In this document: one piece after another, positions 1-42,242 of the stretch
How the letters are laid out: every line of letters starts with the position of its first letter
Position numbering within the stretch: position 1 is the first letter of the stretch
IMG/VR virus record: IMGVR_UViG_2657245570_000016
Source of the DNA: a virus
Taxonomy: Duplodnaviria; Heunggongvirae; Uroviricota; Caudoviricetes
DNA: 42,242 bases
Direction: 5' to 3' (one strand)
Notes under the pieces: generated by a model
Database searches by the model: none
Told to the model about the DNA's origin: nothing
The model's input: only the letters and a program-made list of their open reading frames with translations
Program-made: the position numbers and the translations under genes

Positions 1-270
<270 letters not shown>

Positions 271-3524: not shown

Positions 3525-4442
3525 TTATAATAGTGCTGTTACTATTGCATCTTTAAAAATATTTTCTTCTTCATTTATTAAAGGTGATGACAGATGAATA
3601 ATTACTTCTTTTCCTGTCAATACTATTTGCTCGACTTGAAATCCTGCGTTGTGTAGTCTTTGGCGTAACTTTTCTAGTGCTGATTTTGATATACTAAATC
3701 CTTCACTCCTTATAGTATAACTGGCAACTCCATTTTTAATAATATCTACAGAGTTGTCAATTTCCTGCTGCGAGTAATTTTTCGGTGAGTCGAAAAATCT
3801 GGATTTTGTCGTTGCTGTTGCCCTAAGAGATATCAATAATGATTTGATATCTTTAATCTCAGATGCCAGATACTCAGTTTCTGATACTTCTTTCTGGTCT
3901 AGTTGTGCAACTTTGAAAGTGCCAAAATGTTTGAGGAATGTTGTGTATTCAGGATCAGTTACTGACTTTAAATATGTTTCTTTTATCTTGCTCGCAAGTC
4001 TTTCTTTGAATAAATTGATTGATTGGTATCTTAAATCCGAAGGGTACTCTAAATGTTCAATTGATGAAATGTCAAAGCTATAAGGAGTGCGCTCGTCCTT
4101 AATAATTACGGTCGGTTTGTCAAATGCGAGACGCATTCCTAATTCAAACATTACATTAGCGTTTCGAGCACTTATATCGCAAACAACTATGGGGTTTTCA
4201 TAAAGATTTTGAACAATTCGTTTTTGTATTACTGCAACATCATCATCTGAACTTACCAAATTTGCCTTGAATCCGGCATCATTTGATGCTTCACAAATAA
4301 TGTCATGAACATTTCTCCAATGTCCAGTGGGATAACCTTCTATGTCCGCAATTGGCATAATAATGCCGCATATATGAGGTGGCATATTTTTGTTGTCTTT
4401 TACATCATCTTGGTTTATTTCTTTCGTTTGTTGCTTAGCCAT
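3525..4442 (-). CDS. Hypothetical protein: N-terminal TIR-like / nucleoside 2-deoxyribosyltransferase-like domain plus C-terminal domain of unknown function (about 170 aa)
   Basis: N-terminal ICGIIMPIA...IVVCDISARNANVMFELGMRLAFDKPTVIIKD...SFDISSIEHLEY resembles the conserved core (R.xNV.FE.G ... pSD..G..Y) of TIR-like/deoxyribosyltransferase-like folds. Visibly AT-rich relative to neighbours; good AGGAG Shine-Dalgarno before the ATG at 4440-4442. Confidence 0.5.
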   Translation of the reverse strand: MAKQQTKEINQDDVKDNKNMPPHICGIIMPIADIEGYPTGHWRNVHDIICEASNDAGFKANLVSSDDDVAVIQKRIVQNLYENPIVVCDISARNANVMFELGMRLAFDKPTVIIKDERTPYSFDISSIEHLEYPSDLRYQSINLFKERLASKIKETYLKSVTDPEYTTFLKHFGTFKVAQLDQKEVSETEYLASEIKDIKSLLISLRATATTKSRFFDSPKNYSQQEIDNSVDIIKNGVASYTIRSEGFSISKSALEKLRQRLHNAGFQVEQIVLTGKEVIIHLSSPLINEEENIFKDAIVTALL

Positions 4443-5171: not shown

Positions 5172-5933
5172 TTACGAGGAAGCGTTAGCTATTTGAGCTT
5201 GTGTAAATTCGAAACCAGAATTTTGTAACCGTTGCACTAGACGAGGAACTGTTTCACGTACATGGTCGTTGAAATTCAGATACAAAATCCCGTTAGCATC
5301 AGAAGGCTGTTCTAGGTGCTGTTTCTGAAGGATTGCTACATTGCTGCGCCCTAAGGACGAAAGAAGCATACCCATCTCGAGTACAACGTTCTGTCTTGCG
5401 CGGGGTTGGATTTCTGCTTCACCGGCGCGCTTTGAGTATCCCATATCATCAGGTGTCAAAAGAACAATCCCGAAACGAGTAGCAGTTTGTCCTTGCCCAA
5501 TTTCACGTTCAAGCTCTTCAATAATGGTGAGTCCAGTCCCTCCCGTATTCTGCAAAATGAAATGGTCTGGTAATCCAAGTTTATGAAGGATTAGCTCAAG
5601 TTGTTCCTTTGCAGTATGGTCATGGCCGTGAACAATGAATATCTTTTTGGGAAGCTCAGATGGCTGTTCTACGGCTAGTGGTGTTGCCGTGGGGGGCGTT
5701 CCTAAATGGGACATTATTGCAGTTTCAACATTGGGACGTTCTTGAGGGTTCCCTTGAAACTGAATGGTCCGGGTGGTGTAAAGGTTAACAATTACGCCAT
5801 TCGTTAAACGATAGCAGTCATAAGTCTCACGCTGTTCGTGGGAAAAATTGGTGAACCCACACTCCCTCAAAAAGTCAGGAAAAGATTCTCTCGGGTATGG
5901 ATAGTTGATCGGCATTTCAGTTAGTTCCTGCAT
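5172..5933 (-). CDS. Hypothetical protein: N-terminal domain of unknown function (about 90 aa) plus C-terminal TIR-like domain (Cap12/PycTIR-type predicted nucleotide-binding fold)
   Basis: C-terminal KKIFIVHGHDH...FGIVLLTPDD...RARQNVVLEMGMLLSSLGRSNVAILQK...PSDANGILYL matches my recollection of the TIR-like consensus (FIvHG ... TPDD ... RaRqNVvfElG ... pSD..G..y). GC content looks lower than the flanking pol gene. AAAGGA Shine-Dalgarno before the ATG. Confidence 0.55.
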   Translation of the reverse strand: MQELTEMPINYPYPRESFPDFLRECGFTNFSHEQRETYDCYRLTNGVIVNLYTTRTIQFQGNPQERPNVETAIMSHLGTPPTATPLAVEQPSELPKKIFIVHGHDHTAKEQLELILHKLGLPDHFILQNTGGTGLTIIEELEREIGQGQTATRFGIVLLTPDDMGYSKRAGEAEIQPRARQNVVLEMGMLLSSLGRSNVAILQKQHLEQPSDANGILYLNFNDHVRETVPRLVQRLQNSGFEFTQAQIANASS

Positions 5934-8107: not shown

Positions 8108-8737
8108 ATGCATATGATCCAATACTTGATTGACCATACAGAGCATCTGGAGAAAATAGCTGGATATATTTTTTCATGTTTGATTGTTATGGGAGTCTGG
8201 ATAAGAAAGATCATTTTTAATTATAAGTATAAAGAGCCTAAATATGTCAAGAAGTTAATTTTATATTTAATTAAGTATGAACGTTATCTGGATAAGGAGG
8301 ATAAGAAAGCCATAGAAAAAAGAATAAATGATAAAATTATTCGTGATGCGCTGAAATTGCAATCCTCTTATAACCGAAGAGATGTTATTTACATTTGCAA
8401 TAGATTAGAAAAAAGACAGTATATAAATCAGTTGATTAAGCTTCAGAATTATATAGAGAAAGATAACGGAGTGTTTTTTATTAATGTTGATTTTTCAGGT
8501 TTTTTATTTATTATTAGTCGTCTGTTTTCCTTTCTGTGTTTTGTGCTGTTTACCCTTTTTTCTATTATCTGCATTATTTCCATAGGGCAAAATGAAGGCC
8601 TTTTAAATTATCTTGTGTATATGGTTATGATAATAGTTTTAGAGACTGTTGGTTTTTGGATGTATGATACTTTCCCGTCTAAGAAAAAGATCTGTGAACT
8701 AAATAAAGAATTGAGAAAGATTAAGATTCCTGAGTGA
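8108..8737 (+). CDS. Hypothetical integral membrane protein (AT-rich moron on the opposite strand)
   Basis: Strongly AT-rich coding sequence. Predicted N-terminal transmembrane helix (IAGYIFSCLIVMGVWI), a Lys/Tyr-rich soluble middle, and two C-terminal hydrophobic helices. Convergent with the flanking early genes. Confidence 0.55.
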   Translation: MHMIQYLIDHTEHLEKIAGYIFSCLIVMGVWIRKIIFNYKYKEPKYVKKLILYLIKYERYLDKEDKKAIEKRINDKIIRDALKLQSSYNRRDVIYICNRLEKRQYINQLIKLQNYIEKDNGVFFINVDFSGFLFIISRLFSFLCFVLFTLFSIICIISIGQNEGLLNYLVYMVMIIVLETVGFWMYDTFPSKKKICELNKELRKIKIPE

Positions 8738-16788: not shown

Positions 16789-17211
16789 ATGCGTGATATT
16801 CGACTGGTTTTAGAGCGATGGGGGGGCTGGGCTGCGAGCGAAGGTTGCAGTGTCTACTATCCACCTGTTTCCGCTGGATTTAAGAATCTGCTACCTGCAA
16901 CGCAAGCCGGGCGGCTGAAGTGCAGTGACAATGACGGTCTGATCATCAGCTCTGCTATGAACTGCCTGAAGAAAAAAGATCCGTACCTGTGTACGCTCCT
17001 TGAGTGGCATTACATCCAGGCGATGCCTGTGAGGGCTATGGGTGTGAAGCTCGGCGTATCACACACTCAAGTTCTGAAGAGGCTCCAGGCTGCAGAGGGA
17101 TTTATCGACGGCTGCCTGGCTATGCTGGACGTGGTTCTGGAAATGGATCAAGCAGTTCAGTCAAAGCCTAAGGCTATCAGGACTTTGCGAAGGAGCTGCC
17201 CGGCGGCATAA
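16789..17211 (+). CDS. Late-gene antiterminator, Q-like
   Basis: N-terminus MRDIRLVLERWGGWAA resembles Q-family antiterminators as I recall them; positioned before a terminator and the lysis genes. Confidence 0.6.
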   Translation: MRDIRLVLERWGGWAASEGCSVYYPPVSAGFKNLLPATQAGRLKCSDNDGLIISSAMNCLKKKDPYLCTLLEWHYIQAMPVRAMGVKLGVSHTQVLKRLQAAEGFIDGCLAMLDVVLEMDQAVQSKPKAIRTLRRSCPAA

Positions 17212-37606: not shown

Positions 37607-38283
37607 GCAAATACACCGAACTAATCACGAACTACCACGCCACCAAACCTAAATTTCTTGCGCATGTTGATCTGATGACCCGGCCACTTATTGATGTTGC
37701 GGCTGCCACCAGAGGGCTGATTAGTGCATTTGATATTGACTCTGCGGTTGGTGTGCAACTTGACATCCTTGGATTGTGGATCGGACGTAGCCGTGTTGTC
37801 AGCCAGCCTATCTCAGGTGTCTATTTCAGCTGGGATACCGACGGGCTTGGATATGATCAGGGGGTATGGCAGGGACCATACGATCCTGATTCAGGATACA
37901 TGTATCTCAGCGATGAAACTTATCGTGTCATTCTTAAAGCGAAGATTGCGATTAATAACTGGGACGGACGGAATGATTCGCTTCCGGCAATTCTTGACGC
38001 GGCAACAGCAGGATCCGGGCTGCGAATGCAGATAGTCGATAACCAGGACATGACGATATCGGTCTGGGTCTTTCCTGATACTGATATTTCAGATGTATCG
38101 CGTGAGTTAATTGCGGCAATTAAACAGGGGTATCTCACAGTAAAAGCCGCCGGGGTATGGGCGGGTGGCATTGAAACACCTTCGGTGGAAACCCCATCGG
38201 AAGGCTCAAAATTTTTTGGTTTTGATATGGATAACGAATTCATCAGTGGTTTTGATGTAGGAGCATGGGGAGTATTACTCTGA
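37603..38283 (+). CDS. Baseplate/tail protein (I-like)
   Basis: 226 aa between J-like and tail fibre genes. Confidence 0.45.
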
Positions 38284-38978
38284 TGGCGAAAAATGACTTT
38301 AAAGCGTTTGCAACGGATCGAAATGCCAATGTTATATCGCAGGAGGAATGGGAAGCGTTGCCCGCGCTTTTATCTGGATTTACAGCAGGGAAAGCCTCCA
38401 GTGCGCAAGTCAATAAGGTTATTCGGCAGGCCAGCTTTATTGCTGCAGCTCTGGCCCAGTTTGTAAGTGATAAAACGCAACGGGATGTGCTTGATAATGG
38501 TGATCTGCCCGGTTTTGTTGAATTGCTGGGATCGGGGTTTGCTGTTGAATACCTGAGCCGCAAGAATCCGTTTGGCGATATCAAATCGGACGGCACGGTG
38601 AAAACAGCTCTCGAAAACCTTGGTTTGGGAGAAGCGGCAAAACGGAATGTGGGCACAGGAGATAATCAGATACCGGATATGGGAGCATTCGCTTCTGGTT
38701 CGGGATGGTTCAGGCTACCAGGTGGATATATTGTTCAGTTTGGCACTTTTTCAGGAAACACGACCCGCTTTATCAGTGGACACTTCCCTATACCATTCCC
38801 TAATCAGCCGATGATTTCAGTCAGTGTTATGTCTGATGCCGTTCAGTCAGACCCGTCGAATCCTGCCCCGCAGGTTTTGTCTGTAAATTTTGAACATATC
38901 AGTAATTCAGCGTGGCGTGTGGCAACCAGTGATATCTCACAGCAATACAGATTCAGTTATATTTCGATAGGACGGTAG
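38265..38978 (+). CDS. Tail fibre protein (constant part plus currently expressed variable C-terminus)
   Basis: Contains the left inversion site at 38611-38634 inside the coding sequence; followed by a tail fibre assembly gene. Alternative ATG at 38283. Confidence 0.6.
38611..38634. repeat. Invertase recombination site, left (hix/gix-like)
   Basis: TCGAAAACCTTGGTTTGGGAGAAG; its left half resembles the hix half-site as I recall it; matches the reverse complement of 40429-40452 at 21 of 24 positions. Confidence 0.6.
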
Positions 38979-38980
38979 AA

Positions 38981-39421
38981 ATGCAGAAATATATTTTCAG
39001 TGCCGATAAAAATGCGTTTTTCCCTGTGGAGCTTAAAATCGCTTATCAGGAATCCGGCGAATGGCCCGATGATGGAATCGAAATTGACGACACTGTTGCT
39101 GCCGAATTTATGAAGGAAGCACCAGAAGGAAAATACAGAGGTGTCATCGACGGAATGCCTGCATGGATTGATATTCCACCGCCAACTCATGAGGAACAAA
39201 TTGCCGCAGCCGAACTGAAAAAGCAGCAATTGATTAATCAGGTCAACGAATACATAAACAGTAAGCAATGGCCTGGTAAAGCGGCGATTGGTCGCCTGAA
39301 AGGTGAGGAACTGGTGCAATATAATTTGTGGCTGGATTATCTGGACGCACTGGAACTGGTCGATACTTCCGGTGCGCCAGATATTGAATGGCCTACGCCT
39401 CCGGCAGTTCAGGCCAGATGA
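38981..39421 (+). CDS. Tail fibre assembly protein (Tfa/U-like)
   Basis: 146 aa; conserved C-terminal ELVDTSGAPDIEWPTPP, mirrored by the opposite-strand paralogue (DTSTAPDVIWPELP). Confidence 0.7.
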   Translation: MQKYIFSADKNAFFPVELKIAYQESGEWPDDGIEIDDTVAAEFMKEAPEGKYRGVIDGMPAWIDIPPPTHEEQIAAAELKKQQLINQVNEYINSKQWPGKAAIGRLKGEELVQYNLWLDYLDALELVDTSGAPDIEWPTPPAVQAR

Positions 39422-39989
39422 CATCCGGCGCGGTGCTGGTATCTGTTGCCGTCACCGCGTCAATGTAATCCAGCACAGCGTTAAGCCGGGTTGTTTCTGC
39501 CTGCGTCAGTTTCCGCCCGGCTTGTAATTTCAGCTGAATCAGACTAATGGAAGCCATTGCTGCATCAATCAGTGACTGGCGCTGTGCTTCTGACGCGTCT
39601 ACTGCGGCGCTATGCTGTGCCTCGGTATCCGTCACCCATTTCTCACCATCCCATTTATCGTATGGCATTAACGGTGAAAGCGTGACATAACCATCTTTGA
39701 TGGCACCGATATAATCCACTGTAACAGCTGCGCCATTTTCGATTGAGTAAACAGTCTCATTGCGATGGTCCTCTTCATGGCTCCATCCCTTACCTGTAAA
39801 TACAGCCACTTTTCCCGGAATGTTTTCGCCAGGGTTAATTCCAGTGGAACAGGCGGGCATACTTACGCCAGTATTAATATATTCATCAGACCAGCCCGTA
39901 TACTCAGATGTTTCAGCATCATAATAAAAACAACGCATATCGCCCGGCACTGTAGCCAGTCCATTTTCATCAAAAATTGGGGTCATCAT
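39393..39989 (-). CDS. Alternative tail fibre assembly protein (Tfa') inside the invertible segment
   Basis: 198 aa on the opposite strand with a Tfa-like C-terminus; convergent and overlapping with tfa. Confidence 0.65.
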   Translation of the reverse strand: MMTPIFDENGLATVPGDMRCFYYDAETSEYTGWSDEYINTGVSMPACSTGINPGENIPGKVAVFTGKGWSHEEDHRNETVYSIENGAAVTVDYIGAIKDGYVTLSPLMPYDKWDGEKWVTDTEAQHSAAVDASEAQRQSLIDAAMASISLIQLKLQAGRKLTQAETTRLNAVLDYIDAVTATDTSTAPDVIWPELPEA

Positions 39990-40441
39990 TTAGCCCTCAC
40001 CAGAAAGTTAAATGCAATATTTCGCGGTCTGACGGCAACAAAATTCACACCATCACCCACAGAGTTACTGGTGAAATTAAATCGTGAAAATCCTGGCTGA
40101 TTTCCGGCGATACCATCATGAAAATTAATTGTGTGGCCCGCACCATCGCCTATATTCCCGGCAAACTGAGAAAAGTTTGTAGCTGCCTGCCAGCTTAATA
40201 ATTCGCGACCACCGTCTGCACCTCGCCCGTCATCCCAGATACGAATGAAATCACCGCGGGCTTCAGGTAATACCAGCGAAGGAAACACTTTCGCCAGCAC
40301 AGGGTAATCAGAGGCAGAAAATTTCGCCCCGTTAAACTTCAAAAACACCATACCGGACCAGCTGTCGATGACAGAATTTGGCATTGCAGCGGACGGCCAG
40401 AAGAACGGAACGCCAATAGCTGGGGCACCTTCTCCCAAACC
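39986..40441 (-). CDS. Alternative tail fibre C-terminal segment (Sv'-like; promoterless, expressed only after inversion)
   Basis: Open frame on the minus strand starting at the right inversion site; encodes a Gly-rich fibre-like C-terminus; no plausible own start. The ORF-track Met at 40483 lies outside the invertible segment. Confidence 0.55.
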   Translation of the reverse strand, partial: GLGEGAPAIGVPFFWPSAAMPNSVIDSWSGMVFLKFNGAKFSASDYPVLAKVFPSLVLPEARGDFIRIWDDGRGADGGRELLSWQAATNFSQFAGNIGDGAGHTINFHDGIAGNQPGFSRFNFTSNSVGDGVNFVAVRPRNIAFNFLVRAK

Positions 40442-40452
40442 AACGTTTATGA
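40429..40452. repeat. Invertase recombination site, right (hix/gix-like)
   Basis: CTTCTCCCAAACCAACGTTTATGA is the inverted copy of 38611-38634; lies 57 bp upstream of the invertase start. Confidence 0.6.
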
Positions 40453-40509
40453 AAATGCAGAAATAACGAGCAAATGGCATCATTCCTGCTTTTGTCAGAG
40501 GGATCCACT

Positions 40510-40824
40510 ATGCTTATTGGCTATGTACGTGTGTCAACAAATGACCAGAACACAGATCTACAACGTAATGCGCTGAACTGTGCAGGATGCGAGCTGTTTT
40601 TTGAAGACAAGATAAGCGGTACAAAGTCCGAAAGGCCGGGACTGAAAAAACTGCTCAGGACATTATCGGCAGGTGACACTCTGGTTGTCTGGAAGCTGGA
40701 TCGGCTGGGGCGCAGTGTGCGGCATCTTGTCGTGCTGGTGGAGGAGTTGTGCGAACAAGGTGTTAATTTTAGTAGTTATGTTATTACAGGTGGGGGATTT
40801 CTCCCCCTTATGCAGATTTTCTAG
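40510..40824 (+). pseudogene. Serine DNA invertase (Hin/Gin/Pin/Cin family), truncated after about 96 codons
   Basis: MLIGYVRVSTNDQNTDLQRNAL...DTLVVWKLDRLGRSV closely matches the Pin/Hin N-terminal catalytic domain; after EQGVNF the sequence diverges (SSYVITGGGFLPLMQIF*) into AT-rich DNA. Typical family members are about 185-190 aa. Confidence 0.75.
40787..40802. other. GC hairpin at the junction between the truncated invertase and AT-rich DNA
   Basis: GGGGGA-TTTC-TCCCCC perfect 6-bp stem, about 27 nt downstream of the stop of the minus-strand 281-aa gene. Confidence 0.4.
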
Positions 40825-40828
40825 TTAA

Positions 40829-41674
40829 CTATTGGCGAAGTGGCCATATTTTTCTGTTTTTTAAAAAACTATCTTCAACTATATAACTGCAACAATGTTC
40901 ACTAAGGCCATAAAAACTAATTATTCCATATTTATGAGAAGCTATATCAGACAGTTCTGCTAATACTGTGGCAAGCCAACGAGCGATGCTAAGAGAATAG
41001 AATCTTCCCCACTTTTGAACAATGGTATTTTGTCCAGTACGGATGGAGGCTGATATAAGGTCTTGCATAATGTTGGTACTTTCATTCATATACATGACCG
41101 TTGTATACGGTGAAAGAGTGGCATTGATAAACCTAGCATTTTCTTCAACACGTCTTTGTTCAACTGTATAATAATAATGTTTTTCAAGGATACTCTCGGC
41201 TACTTCTCCCCACCATTTATTAATAGGTTCATTATTGGTTAAATTGGGGCTGCTTAATGAGGAGAAATTTGCGTAACGTCCCCGTCGGGCATCAGCAAAG
41301 GAATCTAAACATTCAAGTATTTTGTAGGTAATTTTATGTGTAGGACGTGAATATCTCAGAGATAGTTGCATTTTTTTAGAAATACTATCAACCTCGTTGG
41401 TTAATTCAATGAGCTTATGTCCAAATTTTCTTACAATATTCTCATCAGGCATTTTCCCTTTGTGTTCAATGGCATAGTGTGCAACAAGTATTAGTTTAGC
41501 AAGTCTCTCAAAACCTACAGAAAGCCCAAAAAATGCTGTGTAATATTCACCTATTTTGTCTGCATAATTGGCTTTACCTATGGCTGTTGCCCCAGAACCA
41601 ATGAGCTGTGTAACTAAAGATGCTTCTCGGCCCAGAGCGTGCCATGCTGGAATATCCCAGGGATTTTTATTCAC
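40829..41674 (-). CDS. Hypothetical protein (281 aa), AT-rich cargo gene
   Basis: Long ORF in visibly AT-rich DNA; no motif I can assign confidently. Confidence 0.5.
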   Translation of the reverse strand: MNKNPWDIPAWHALGREASLVTQLIGSGATAIGKANYADKIGEYYTAFFGLSVGFERLAKLILVAHYAIEHKGKMPDENIVRKFGHKLIELTNEVDSISKKMQLSLRYSRPTHKITYKILECLDSFADARRGRYANFSSLSSPNLTNNEPINKWWGEVAESILEKHYYYTVEQRRVEENARFINATLSPYTTVMYMNESTNIMQDLISASIRTGQNTIVQKWGRFYSLSIARWLATVLAELSDIASHKYGIISFYGLSEHCCSYIVEDSFLKNRKIWPLRQ

Positions 41675-41801
41675 TTTATTATTTTCCTTTGCTCATAAAT
41701 TTAAATTGTTTGAGTATCTCATAAAATATAAGGAGATGGTTAAGGTTGTTGATCGCATATAATAGCTATTGAAAGTCAAGAACTCGGTTTTATGTTCTAC
41801 C

Positions 41802-41842
41802 ACTAATTAATATATTGTGAGTTTGACAATATATTAATTAGT
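41802..41842. repeat. Perfect palindrome (16-bp arms, 9-bp spacer) upstream of the 281-aa gene
   Basis: ACTAATTAATATATTG-TGAGTTTGA-CAATATATTAATTAGT; the arms are exact reverse complements. Confidence 0.6.
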
Positions 41843-41975
41843 ATGATCAAACCAGCCATCAACTGATTCCTTGTATCTTTCAGAGTCTCCAGAACAAAAG
41901 CCTTAACGAATTCCTTATTTGTGAGTGCCTTACCAAAAGCCCATTGTTGCAGGGAACGAGTATAAAACTCGCCAG

Positions 41976-42242
41976 CTACTGGAGCAGGCTACCTGATTGT
42001 CGATCGATTCCTGCGTCCATATAGTCGATGGTCTTCTGGAGCTCTTCGATTAGGGCAATAGCTTTTGCTCGAGAAATGCATATTAGTTGATCCGGAAATT
42101 CTTGTAAGGGCCAGTTTGGTATACAGGCCATGTTATCAGTGAAGGATGCAGACAAGTAAACTTCATTGGTAACTAGGGAATAGCTTACCTCAAAATTGGT
42201 GAGTTCCGGCAAACTGCTAACGTTTGATTCTTTTCTGCGCAT
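41976..42242 (-). CDS. Hypothetical protein (apparent Met is at the window edge; may extend beyond the window)
   Basis: 88-aa ORF whose ATG coincides with the last 3 nt of the window; AT-rich. Confidence 0.35.
   Translation of the reverse strand: MRRKESNVSSLPELTNFEVSYSLVTNEVYLSASFTDNMACIPNWPLQEFPDQLICISRAKAIALIEELQKTIDYMDAGIDRQSGSLLQ

Follow-up and report, generated by a model that had tools for sequence, protein, structure and literature searches.

An exchangeable cargo slot at the right end of a SEN34-like Escherichia coli prophage carries a candidate HEPN-like anti-phage gene

PrrC (EcoprrI) and RloC are anticodon nucleases encoded in Type I restriction-modification (R-M) operons, prrC lying within prrA-prrB-prrC-prrD, and both combine an N-terminal ABC-type ATPase with a canonical HEPN motif. 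Their linkage to R-M systems is stated in PMC3710099. HepS, from the Gifsy-1 prophage of Salmonella, is a solo HEPN anticodon nuclease acting by abortive infection (PMC13043305); it has the canonical R100-x4-H105 and its homologues are defined as having ≤250 aa. AbiV from Lactococcus (~200 aa) requires a non-coding RNA encoded upstream, whose small hairpin inhibits the RNase (10.1101/2024.05.05.592566; PMC13064643). Metal-independent RNase activity at a dimer interface is characteristic of the HEPN superfamily. HEPN proteins of the AbiV/AF0298 type have been described as lacking the His of Rx4-6H and using an alternative one (PMC3710099); the AbiV authors assign R91/H97 as a canonical motif (10.1101/2024.05.05.592566).

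The last part of the DNA analysed here (the window, a stretch of 42,242 nucleotides) belongs to the right end of a temperate myovirus, SEN34-like (Brunovirus-like), that has inserted into the 5' end of yfhL. According to the alignment of K-12, attL and attR, the attL core (TTCACACATATCACAATT) occupies positions 214-231, within the 5' part of yfhL (1-261, minus strand), and the attR core is found at the equivalent of 42450-42467. A single copy of the core is present in the window and another in L001 (17051-17068), the coordinates of which differ from those of the window by an offset of 25399. In K-12, where the site is empty, yfhH and yfhL are separated by only 55 bp. An earlier note on this DNA had left it undecided whether the AT-rich block at the end of the window was prophage or host flank, and had proposed extending it rightwards to attR and comparing it with prophage-free strains at yfhL; because the attR core sits ~210 bp past the window end, the whole block is prophage DNA and the host flank is excluded.

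The block is indeed more AT-rich than the tail genes, as first noticed, with a GC content of 0.36-0.37 over 40800-42000 against 0.44-0.55 (0.37 for the 281-aa gene it contains and 0.50 for the remaining window). However, it had been treated as a single unit and it consists of two parts. The first is a variable cargo segment of 1184 bp and ~36% GC (40777-41960; breakpoints 40776/40777 and 41960/41961 by blastn against L078), which megablast detected in 44 of 5426 E. coli genomes, invariably at this locus. The second (41961-42242) is the start of a conserved right arm that runs on for ~210 bp to attR; it is phage backbone common to 125 E. coli genomes (megablast) and shows 95.7% identity to L078. 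On its left, the cargo segment abuts a Pin/Gin-type serine invertase (40510-40776, plus strand) of which only codons 1-89 are left, the intact sister invertase having 182 aa. The homology to the intact pinE of strain 2013C-4465 (94% identity) ends at 40776 and therefore the replacement of the invertase 3' end, previously placed at 40787, begins at 40777. This gene is a pseudogene: it lacks a complete resolvase catalytic domain, with the C-terminal catalytic part missing, and the C-terminal HTH_7, the Pfam Resolvase match is N-terminal only (profile positions 2-98 of 145), and PGAP labels it as a pseudogene, incomplete, with the C-terminus missing.

The right arm opens with an 88-aa gene (41976-42242, minus strand; phrog_17793, homologue of SEN34_31). 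This is the second ORF that was thought to run off the window; in fact it is complete, its ATG being the last three bases of the window, and the identical locus of the genome also contains it in full. Located next to attP, it belongs to the conserved backbone of SEN34-like phages and is not cargo. We also considered it as a partner of the 281-aa gene, an idea that was rejected as the two co-occur only in this E. coli prophage. The 88-aa protein has a predicted beta-beta-beta-alpha fold that resembles a COMM domain, which is characterized by such a fold over ~70-85 residues and by obligate dimers.

The cargo segment stands in place of the invertase 3' half and the 215-aa gene of sister prophages, and it contains the 281-aa gene, a palindrome with 17-bp arms and a dinI-like remnant. 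The same slot carries differing cargo in IAI1, H10407, 2013C-4465 and SEN34: an O-acetyltransferase or acyltransferase in SEN34 and IAI1, and the 215-aa protein, of membrane/coiled-coil type, in other sister prophages. The region between the tail-fibre inversion module and the 88-aa gene is a slot of exchangeable accessory genes, in which, we propose, recombination swapped out the invertase 3' half and the usual 215-aa gene. The incoming DNA would be a 1.18-kb AT-rich mosaic from another mobile element, bringing the dinI-like remnant, the palindrome and the 281-aa gene. The proposal that this prophage end is a site for accessory cargo thus holds for the 281-aa gene, which lies in the variable slot, and fails for the 88-aa backbone gene. 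The SEN34-like (Brunovirus) moron slot and the P2 hotspot between gene A and the portal gene are alike in being variable accessory loci at a fixed place of the backbone; both are places and not mechanisms, and they link their contents to an accessory or defence role by association only. Three 'phage' records with the 281-aa gene (ON470579, ON470588 and ON470593) were discarded as evidence of packaging. ON470588, the one inspected, is a prophage prediction, because it includes the host genes yfhH, pgpC and tadA, and we assume the same for ON470579 and ON470593, so these three GenBank 'phage genomes' should be read in this way.

The dinI-like 3' remnant (41834-41953, minus strand) is 5'-truncated and frameshifted, and its translation matches ...FVQETLKDT... 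and then, in a second frame, ...DEWFVH followed by the stop codon. Its nucleotide identity to dinI-like genes in E. coli plasmid records is 74-76%, and in one of these records (CP081794) the dinI-like gene adjoins an integrase and a type II R-M system. That this fragment could derive from the C-terminus of hsdR was unsupported by tblastx on the fetched homologue loci, and the separate plasmid search identified it as dinI-like. The neighbourhood of the 281-aa ORF is therefore decayed, since it adjoins a pseudogenised invertase and a dinI-like fragment, which would fit the idea that the block represents host flank, or else a remnant in decay, with an ORF that no longer works in this strain. However, the att boundaries contradict the host-flank part of this idea, the ORF is intact, with 97.7-100% DNA identity over the 44 genomes that have it, all the family-invariant residues are retained and the ribosome-binding region is conserved with homologues, so that we give this explanation hardly any credence.

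The 281-aa gene (40829-41674, minus strand, GTG start) encodes WP_001039127.1, annotated in RefSeq as a hypothetical protein. That it is a real gene, as the earlier note had proposed, is borne out by the strong conservation of the protein across hundreds of relatives. The family comprises 949 clusters at 50% identity (E ≤ 1e-3), nearly all of 270-290 aa, in Proteobacteria, Mycobacterium, Nitrospinota, Fibrobacteres, Binatia and Bacillota. At seven other host loci the gene was compared with its flanks, and its GC content is 11-15 points lower in six of them and 2 points lower in the seventh (L015). The family is thus large, unnamed and horizontally mobile. The only upstream sequence shared across hosts is ~25 nt around the ribosome-binding site. 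The 281-aa protein had zero matches in Pfam, NCBIfam, PADLOC and PHROGs, and the family is absent from their annotation. In the PADLOC check that had been suggested for both proteins, neither the 281-aa nor the 88-aa protein matched any family at E ≤ 1 in PADLOC-DB v2.0.0, a release of 2023, so a newer named system could cover the family. Our search for the accessions in the literature available to us and in the DefensePredictor supplements found no mention of them, although the gene may have been tested elsewhere.

The genomic contexts of the family members are informative about their possible role. L015 and 11 of the 57 genome loci show the order hsdM-hsdS-X-hsdR, with the family gene as X and gaps of 13-20 bp, and in Enterobacter and Pseudidiomarina islands the family gene comes immediately after hsdR. 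Family members are also located in P2-like prophages, one of them in Serratia, where they fill the slot that separates the replication gene A from the portal gene, and one of the copies in this slot adjoins a PvuII R-M system. Another member lies 3.5 kb from Thoeris, copies are placed at prophage ends beside umuDC and in one case beside an invertase, and neighbours at other loci include CBASS, PARIS AriA, MADS, DRT, integrases and IS elements. No R-M system is present beside the window copy, and no conserved partner gene accompanied the family among the loci examined. The suggestion of defence cargo therefore gains from the defence contexts of relatives elsewhere, and for the 281-aa gene itself it depends on context and fold. 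Because the family is found both in R-M operons and in prophage defence hotspots, single-gene anti-phage defence seems to us the most likely role. We cautiously lean towards the 281-aa protein being a solo abortive-infection anti-phage effector, probably a HEPN-like RNase, a function that we infer from its contexts together with its predicted fold.

It is also conceivable that the 281-aa gene is accessory cargo that does not serve anti-phage defence and that, for example, acts as a selfish module for addiction or stabilisation, modulates Type I restriction activity or encodes a stress-response nuclease. Many family members are surrounded by housekeeping genes with no defence neighbour, and the close linkage with hsdS and hsdR may reflect control of restriction and not cell killing. 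Against this, proteins with at least 70% mutual identity occur both embedded in R-M operons and alone in the cargo slots of prophages, without an R-M system in the neighbourhood, which disfavours a dedicated R-M regulator. Furthermore, R-M operons and the P2 slot between gene A and the portal gene are classic locations of defence genes (PMC9122126; PMC3710099). We consider a non-defence role unlikely and retain an anti-phage effector as the preferred reading.

The AlphaFold model of the 281-aa protein (pLDDT 82.5, pTM 0.83) is all-alpha and contains a four-helix up-down bundle with HEPN topology. The conserved N-terminal ~160 residues would form this HEPN-like domain, while the C-terminal half is less conserved; comparison of the two halves by hhalign showed no internal duplication of the tandem HEPN type (probability 0.3%). 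A review accepted AbiB, AbiJ and AbiV as HEPN proteins on the basis of 117-118 residues at 2.9 A against 4NQF (PMC13064643). Our model gave nothing significant with Foldseek against the PDB, with no hit under E = 0.6, and profile searches of PDB sequences with close and distant alignments returned only noise. No curated HEPN profile of Pfam or NCBIfam matched the 281-aa protein. Among 51 distant members, a single one matched Pfam HEPN_AbiV (E = 0.0022, short of the curated cut-off), which is near chance level because 51 sequences were tested, and a rerun on 30 of 50 distant members did not recover this match, so it is unmapped to residues.

Even in family members with as little as 27% identity, eight residues remain invariant, E, R, K, H, R and Y among them. 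The Rx4-6H motif is absent from the end of helix 3 of the 281-aa protein: the invariant R133 has no His 4-6 residues further on, the motif being R-Y-x-N-[FL]-x-x-L, and the invariant H86 falls, in the model, in an insert after helix 2. The putative active site is likely to comprise E56, R57 and K60 in helix 2, H86 in the insert, and R133 and Y134 where the third core helix ends, and this layout of invariant residues matches the alternative-His HEPN variant. It could be argued that the protein is HEPN-like but not a nuclease and that, in the way of MtlR, a HEPN protein that is non-catalytic, it serves as a ligand- or protein-binding sensor or as a scaffold acting via a host partner. However, an active site is favoured over a binding surface because eight residues are invariant over such distances, and the E, R, K, H, R and Y among them resemble the former; moreover, a scaffold sits poorly with a family that has no conserved partner gene. 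We therefore find this alternative improbable and keep a HEPN-like RNase as the preferred reading of the fold.

The DNA around the gene contains two inverted repeats. Downstream, 22-37 nt from the stop codon, there is a GC hairpin (GGGGGA-TTTC-TCCCCC, 40792-40807, minus strand), read from the sequence, which is possibly a terminator; it has no T-run and the terminator scan made no call at it. Upstream, the inverted-repeat search revealed a perfect palindrome (41802-41842) whose 17-bp arms flank a spacer of 7 nt, located 128-168 nt from the gene and immediately past the stop codon of the dinI-like remnant. The palindrome is probably an old dinI terminator, as its abutting that stop codon suggests, or an operator. 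We looked for it as an operator repeated in the prophage and discarded this, as there was only one weak half-site with three mismatches (8416-8432).

A perfect hairpin upstream of the gene, in RNA that folds with z = -3.6 against shuffled controls, raises the possibility of an AbiV-like pair of toxin and RNA antitoxin. Nevertheless, in the viral collection the palindrome occurs only alongside the E. coli copy of the gene, and homologues elsewhere have no conserved counterpart of it upstream, just the stretch at the ribosome-binding site being common. In the R-M-embedded copies the start coincides with the stop codon of hsdS and hsdR follows after 13-20 bp, leaving no room for an RNA gene. The position of the palindrome next to the dinI-like stop codon also makes it resemble an old terminator, Rfam gave zero matches over 40400-42242, and no cis-encoded upstream RNA antitoxin of the AbiV type III toxin-antitoxin kind is conserved across the family. 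An RNA-controlled pair is thus very unlikely in our opinion. Besides having no conserved RNA partner, the window protein differs from AbiV in an extra C-terminal half of ~120 residues and in not matching the Pfam model.

The solo effector that we favour can also be compared with the other two systems. It does not belong to the HepS family as defined by length (≤250 aa), R-x4-H and HepS homology: it has 281 aa and no Rx4-6H, and no sequence similarity to HepS is detectable. In contrast to HepS, its family is also found inside Type I R-M operons. There, ~20% of the family occupies the same hsdS-hsdR slot as prrC, which suggests, by analogy, a back-up suicide nuclease guarding the restriction enzyme. 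Unlike PrrC and RloC, the family has neither the ATPase nor the canonical motif (the 281-aa protein, all-alpha, gave no match to an ABC or P-loop ATPase domain), and no R-M system adjoins the window copy, the embedding being a feature of L015 and the 11 genome loci mentioned above.

In the proposed mechanism, the C-terminal half would restrain the enzyme for as long as no phage cue is present; on sensing such a cue, the enzyme would cleave RNA (tRNA, rRNA or mRNA) and halt translation. For the relatives between hsdS and hsdR the cue might arise when the Type I restriction enzyme is inhibited, as with PrrC, while the solo prophage copy would more likely sense a phage product directly, as HepS does. 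More tentatively, the family may represent a new non-canonical catalytic variant of HEPN, with E-R-x-x-K in helix 2, His in the insert that follows and R-Y past the third core helix, that acts as a guard of Type I restriction, in the slot of PrrC and with no ATPase, or as free-standing prophage defence. If this were true, it would provide a new HEPN catalytic variant and a new route from the loss of restriction to cell suicide.

Finally, it is useful for annotation that the cargo slot next to the tail-fibre invertase is exchangeable in the E. coli SEN34-like prophages at yfhL. If the function is confirmed, the 281-aa protein would define a widespread single-gene defence family of ~950 clusters at 50% identity in many phyla. 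It would also be a second and much simpler nuclease of the hsdS-hsdR slot, in which guarding of the PrrC type could be tested with no ATPase, and a test of HEPN chemistry on an alternative set of residues.

The earlier note had left open whether the AT-rich DNA at the right end of the window belongs to the prophage or to the host flank, and we have found that the 281-aa gene (WP_001039127.1; 40829-41674, minus strand, GTG start) lies inside the prophage, between attL and attR. At the left end of the window are yfhL (1-261, minus strand) and, after it, a tyrosine integrase gene (471-1874). Alignment of the K-12 junction, the left end of the window and the sequence beyond its right end in E. coli 22AR0747, the rightward extension that the note had proposed, revealed an 18-bp core (TTCACACATATCACAATT) within the 5' end of yfhL that is common to the three sequences. 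It is located at 214-231 (attL) and, beyond the window end, at 17051-17068 of the 22AR0747 locus L001, equivalent to 42450-42467 (attR). In K-12, 55 bp separate yfhH and yfhL; the note had suggested a comparison with prophage-free strains at this locus. The yfhL N-terminus of the lysogen is supplied by the phage (MSLLITKR replaces MALLITKK) and, because the prophage brings this replacement, the ferredoxin gene remains intact. Just past the window end, in the stretch that separates the 88-aa gene from attR, there is a tandem repeat (ATTCAATAACAC x2; L001 16984-17012) at ~40 bp from the core of attR, which may represent a pair of arm-type integrase binding sites.

The block is indeed AT-rich and opposite to the tail genes, as described before: its GC content is 0.36-0.37 over 40800-42000 versus 0.44-0.55 in the tail genes leftward, and both ORFs are on the minus strand. 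The region 40400-42242 is 100% identical in 22AR0747 and other complete genomes, and the PGAP order in 22AR0747 is a recombinase pseudogene without its C-terminus, WP_001039127.1 (281 aa, hypothetical), an unannotated gap and yfhH. The second ORF revealed by the ORF scan of the window (41976-42242, minus strand) had been thought to run off its end, but it is complete at 88 aa: its ATG is formed by the last three bases, and the longest ORF in the identical genome locus is likewise of 88 aa. A megablast search of 5426 E. coli genomes divides the block at 41960/41961, with 40829-41960 present in 44 genomes and 41961-42242 in 125. The prophage of strain 2013C-4465, at the same site, is homologous over 40429-40776 (94%) and 41961-42242 (95.7%), and between these stretches it carries the remainder of pinE, which is intact there at 182 aa, and on the minus strand a gene of 215 aa; IAI1 has an acyltransferase and the 215-aa gene at the same slot. 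In the circular record of Salmonella phage SEN34, a Brunovirus, the order is tail fibre, tail-fibre assembly gene, O-acetyltransferase, small ORF, 88-aa homologue (83% identity) and integrase. The DNA from 41961 onward is therefore conserved backbone next to attP, and 40777-41960 is an exchangeable cargo slot. Thus, the proposal of accessory or defence cargo at the prophage end holds for the 281-aa gene and fails for the 88-aa gene, which is backbone. As a locus this is nothing unusual: a cargo slot of a prophage, shaped by mosaic recombination.

The commoner occupant of this slot at the yfhL site is the 215-aa gene (minus strand in three sister prophages: L078, 4310-4957; L003, 5310-5957; L077, 4310-4957). 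Its product has an N-terminal hydrophobic helix followed by coiled-coil-like sequence, found no match in a Pfam search and is a possible superinfection-exclusion or Abi-type protein. Another record, ON470588.1, titled Escherichia phage vB_EcoM-611R5 complete genome, carries host yfhH, pgpC and tadA, and because of these host genes it is a prophage prediction with host flank and not a virion genome; ON470579.1 (vB_EcoM-606R2) and ON470593.1 (vB_EcoM-683R1) are from the same submission series. The 88-aa gene corresponds to phrog_17793, which has no function assigned, and its family occurs only in prophages of Escherichia, Salmonella and Citrobacter, apart from distant relatives in phages of Stenotrophomonas and Yersinia. 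In its model (pLDDT 72, a modest confidence) three strands are combined with a long helix, and the likeness to COMM domains is a lead only; prokaryotic COMMD-like proteins have an extra helical domain and no known function, and the paper describing them does not mention phages (PMC13392464). A partnership with the 281-aa gene was ruled out, as their co-occurrence is limited to this prophage. Elsewhere in the prophage, the part of the early region that separates the SNF2 helicase gene from the DNA polymerase gene encodes a 253-aa protein (5172-5933, minus strand) with a clear TIR domain of the CAP12/Pycsar-effector type (PF10137, E = 2.9e-31) and a 305-aa neighbour (3525-4442, minus strand) that matches PF10137 weakly (E = 0.011), a pair that may constitute a second defence or counter-defence cargo locus.

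The cargo segment 40777-41960 is itself a mosaic. To its left there is an incomplete serine-recombinase ORF (40510-40776, plus strand) that covers only positions 2-98 of the 145 of the Resolvase profile. This was the invertase of the tail-fibre inversion module (38265-40483, two opposed sets of tail-fibre C-terminus and assembly genes), and because of its loss the module can no longer switch host range, unless a different Pin/Gin-type invertase in the cell acts in trans. Within the segment, 41834-41953 shows 74-76% identity to dinI-like genes of E. coli plasmid records, at their 3' end; in CP081794, the sole record inspected, this gene adjoins an integrase gene and a type II R-M system. The minus-strand translation gives ...FVKAFVLETLKDT, continued in a second frame by ...DGWFDHTN and a stop, matching ...FVQETLKDTWESADEWFVH and a stop; the stretch is a 5'-truncated, frameshifted remnant. 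Directly after its stop codon there is a perfect palindrome (41802-41842, 17-bp arms, 7-nt spacer), most simply read as the old dinI terminator. It was absent upstream of family members from other hosts in the homologue loci compared, and in the viral collection it occurs exclusively alongside the E. coli copy of the 281-aa gene. In strain CAU16175 (NZ_CP047378.1) the match to 40400-42242 is in two pieces around an IS421 transposase, so that in at least one lineage an IS element has entered the cargo region.

Searches of Pfam, NCBIfam, PADLOC-DB v2 and PHROGs with the 281-aa protein were empty, no relative was found among PDB sequences, and its accessions are not mentioned in the searchable literature. 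It matches no named system in the libraries searched, the newest defence library being of 2023; the PADLOC search that the note had called for was negative. A defence role is pointed to by genomic contexts and fold. A word-seeded search gave 486 clusters at 90% identity, with relatives at 56-74% identity in Enterobacter, Serratia, Klebsiella, Vibrio, Chromohalobacter, Methylocella and others, and the full HMM scan gave 949 clusters at 50% identity (E <= 1e-3), almost all of 270-290 aa and with one domain arrangement. In GTDB they spread over Alpha-, Beta- and Gammaproteobacteria, Mycobacterium, Nitrospinota, Fibrobacteraceae, Binatia, Longimicrobiaceae, Pirellulales and Bacillota. The GC content of the gene is 11-15 points lower than that of its flanks in six of seven other host loci, and 2 points lower in the seventh, the R-M-embedded L015, a pattern consistent with horizontal spread. 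Eight residues (E17, E56, R57, K60, H86, R133, Y134 and W154) are invariant in an alignment down to 27% identity, and strongly conserved positions are almost all within residues 1-160. The gene is genuine and intact, and the family to which it belongs is large and uncharacterised. In Enterobacter, Serratia and Klebsiella (L004, L011, L013) a hairpin (GAGCTCACAAC.AG.TGTGAGCTC) is conserved 35-60 nt 3' of the gene, after the stop codon, whereas downstream of the E. coli copy there is a different GC hairpin; the mobile unit in these three hosts thus seems to carry its own terminator.

Several family members are close to defence genes. In Enterobacter the gene is 85 bp past hsdR in an integrase-bounded island with Vsr, HNH and Type I R-M genes, and in Pseudidiomarina it is directly 3' of hsdR in an operon also containing a RhuM/Fic gene. 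A metagenome contig has the order hsdM-hsdS-X-hsdR, where X is the family gene and starts at the hsdS stop codon, and this order recurred in 11 of the 57 genome loci of a tblastn survey, with 13-20 bp between X and hsdR. The Serratia gene is carried by a P2-like prophage, where replication gene A and the portal gene flank it; this slot has been called a hotspot of antiviral systems (PMC9122126), and in one Serratia strain the gene adjoins a PvuII R-M system; in Chromohalobacter a Thoeris system is 3.5 kb away. In Klebsiella and a related viral contig it is at the prophage end beside umuDC, and in that contig an intact invertase also adjoins it. At further loci it is a solo insertion amid housekeeping genes. 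Some of the 144 immediate neighbours surveyed at 42 loci without R-M matched CBASS, PARIS AriA, MADS, DRT, type II methyltransferases, integrases, IS110 or Phd/YefM, and many were ordinary metabolic genes. Solo and R-M-embedded members are interleaved at 70% identity or above, so that one kind of protein seems to serve in either setting.

The AlphaFold2 model (32-sequence alignment; pLDDT 82.5, pTM 0.83) is all-alpha, with a disordered loop at 134-148. Its structural match list includes HEPN-like C-terminal domains of nucleotidyltransferases (2pbe, 3jyy), YutE, AF0298 (2hsb), TT1696, MNT-HEPN toxins (7ae2, 5yep, 8xdj), sacsin HEPN, Csm6, Csx1, AbiV (9bj5, 16% identity), HepS (9oik) and MtlR. 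Foldseek against the PDB gave nothing significant, and Pfam HEPN_AbiV matched one of 51 distant members below threshold (E = 0.0022); for comparison, 117-118 residues at 2.9 A versus 4NQF were enough for a recent review to accept AbiB, AbiJ and AbiV as HEPN (PMC13064643). The canonical Rx4-6H motif is absent from the family. According to the HEPN survey of Anantharaman et al., this motif is where helix 3 ends and a conserved acidic residue, if present, is on helix 2, and AbiV and AF0298-type domains, which lack the motif His, use a second conserved His from the helix 2-3 insert (PMC3710099). Likewise, E56, R57 and K60 are on the second long helix (43-70), H86 is in the insert after it, and R133, Y134 and N136 are at the end of helix 114-131, ahead of the loop to helix 150-166, a putative active site that fits this alternative-His layout. 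The literature on the AbiV active site is not uniform, since the authors of its structure assign a canonical R91/H97 pair (10.1101/2024.05.05.592566).

The contexts and the predicted fold point to defence. We propose that the 281-aa protein could be a solo abortive-infection effector whose N-terminal nuclease, conserved and HEPN-like, would be kept inactive either by the more variable C-terminal half or, like HepS (PMC13043305), through oligomerisation. Control by an RNA antitoxin, as for AbiV, is unlikely because upstream similarity among family loci is limited to ~25 nt around the ribosome-binding site (AAAGGAAAA...) and the R-M-embedded copies leave no room for an RNA gene. The prr operon has the gene order prrA-prrB-prrC-prrD. 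PrrC is linked to R-M systems (PMC3710099), like the family copies inside R-M operons, for which an inactivated restriction complex may serve as the cue, by analogy with PrrC. A phage cue would switch the proposed effector on, leading to RNA cleavage, and for this prophage copy the cue would more likely be a phage protein. All these data make us lean slightly towards the 281-aa gene being a solo HEPN-like abortive-infection or R-M-linked effector.
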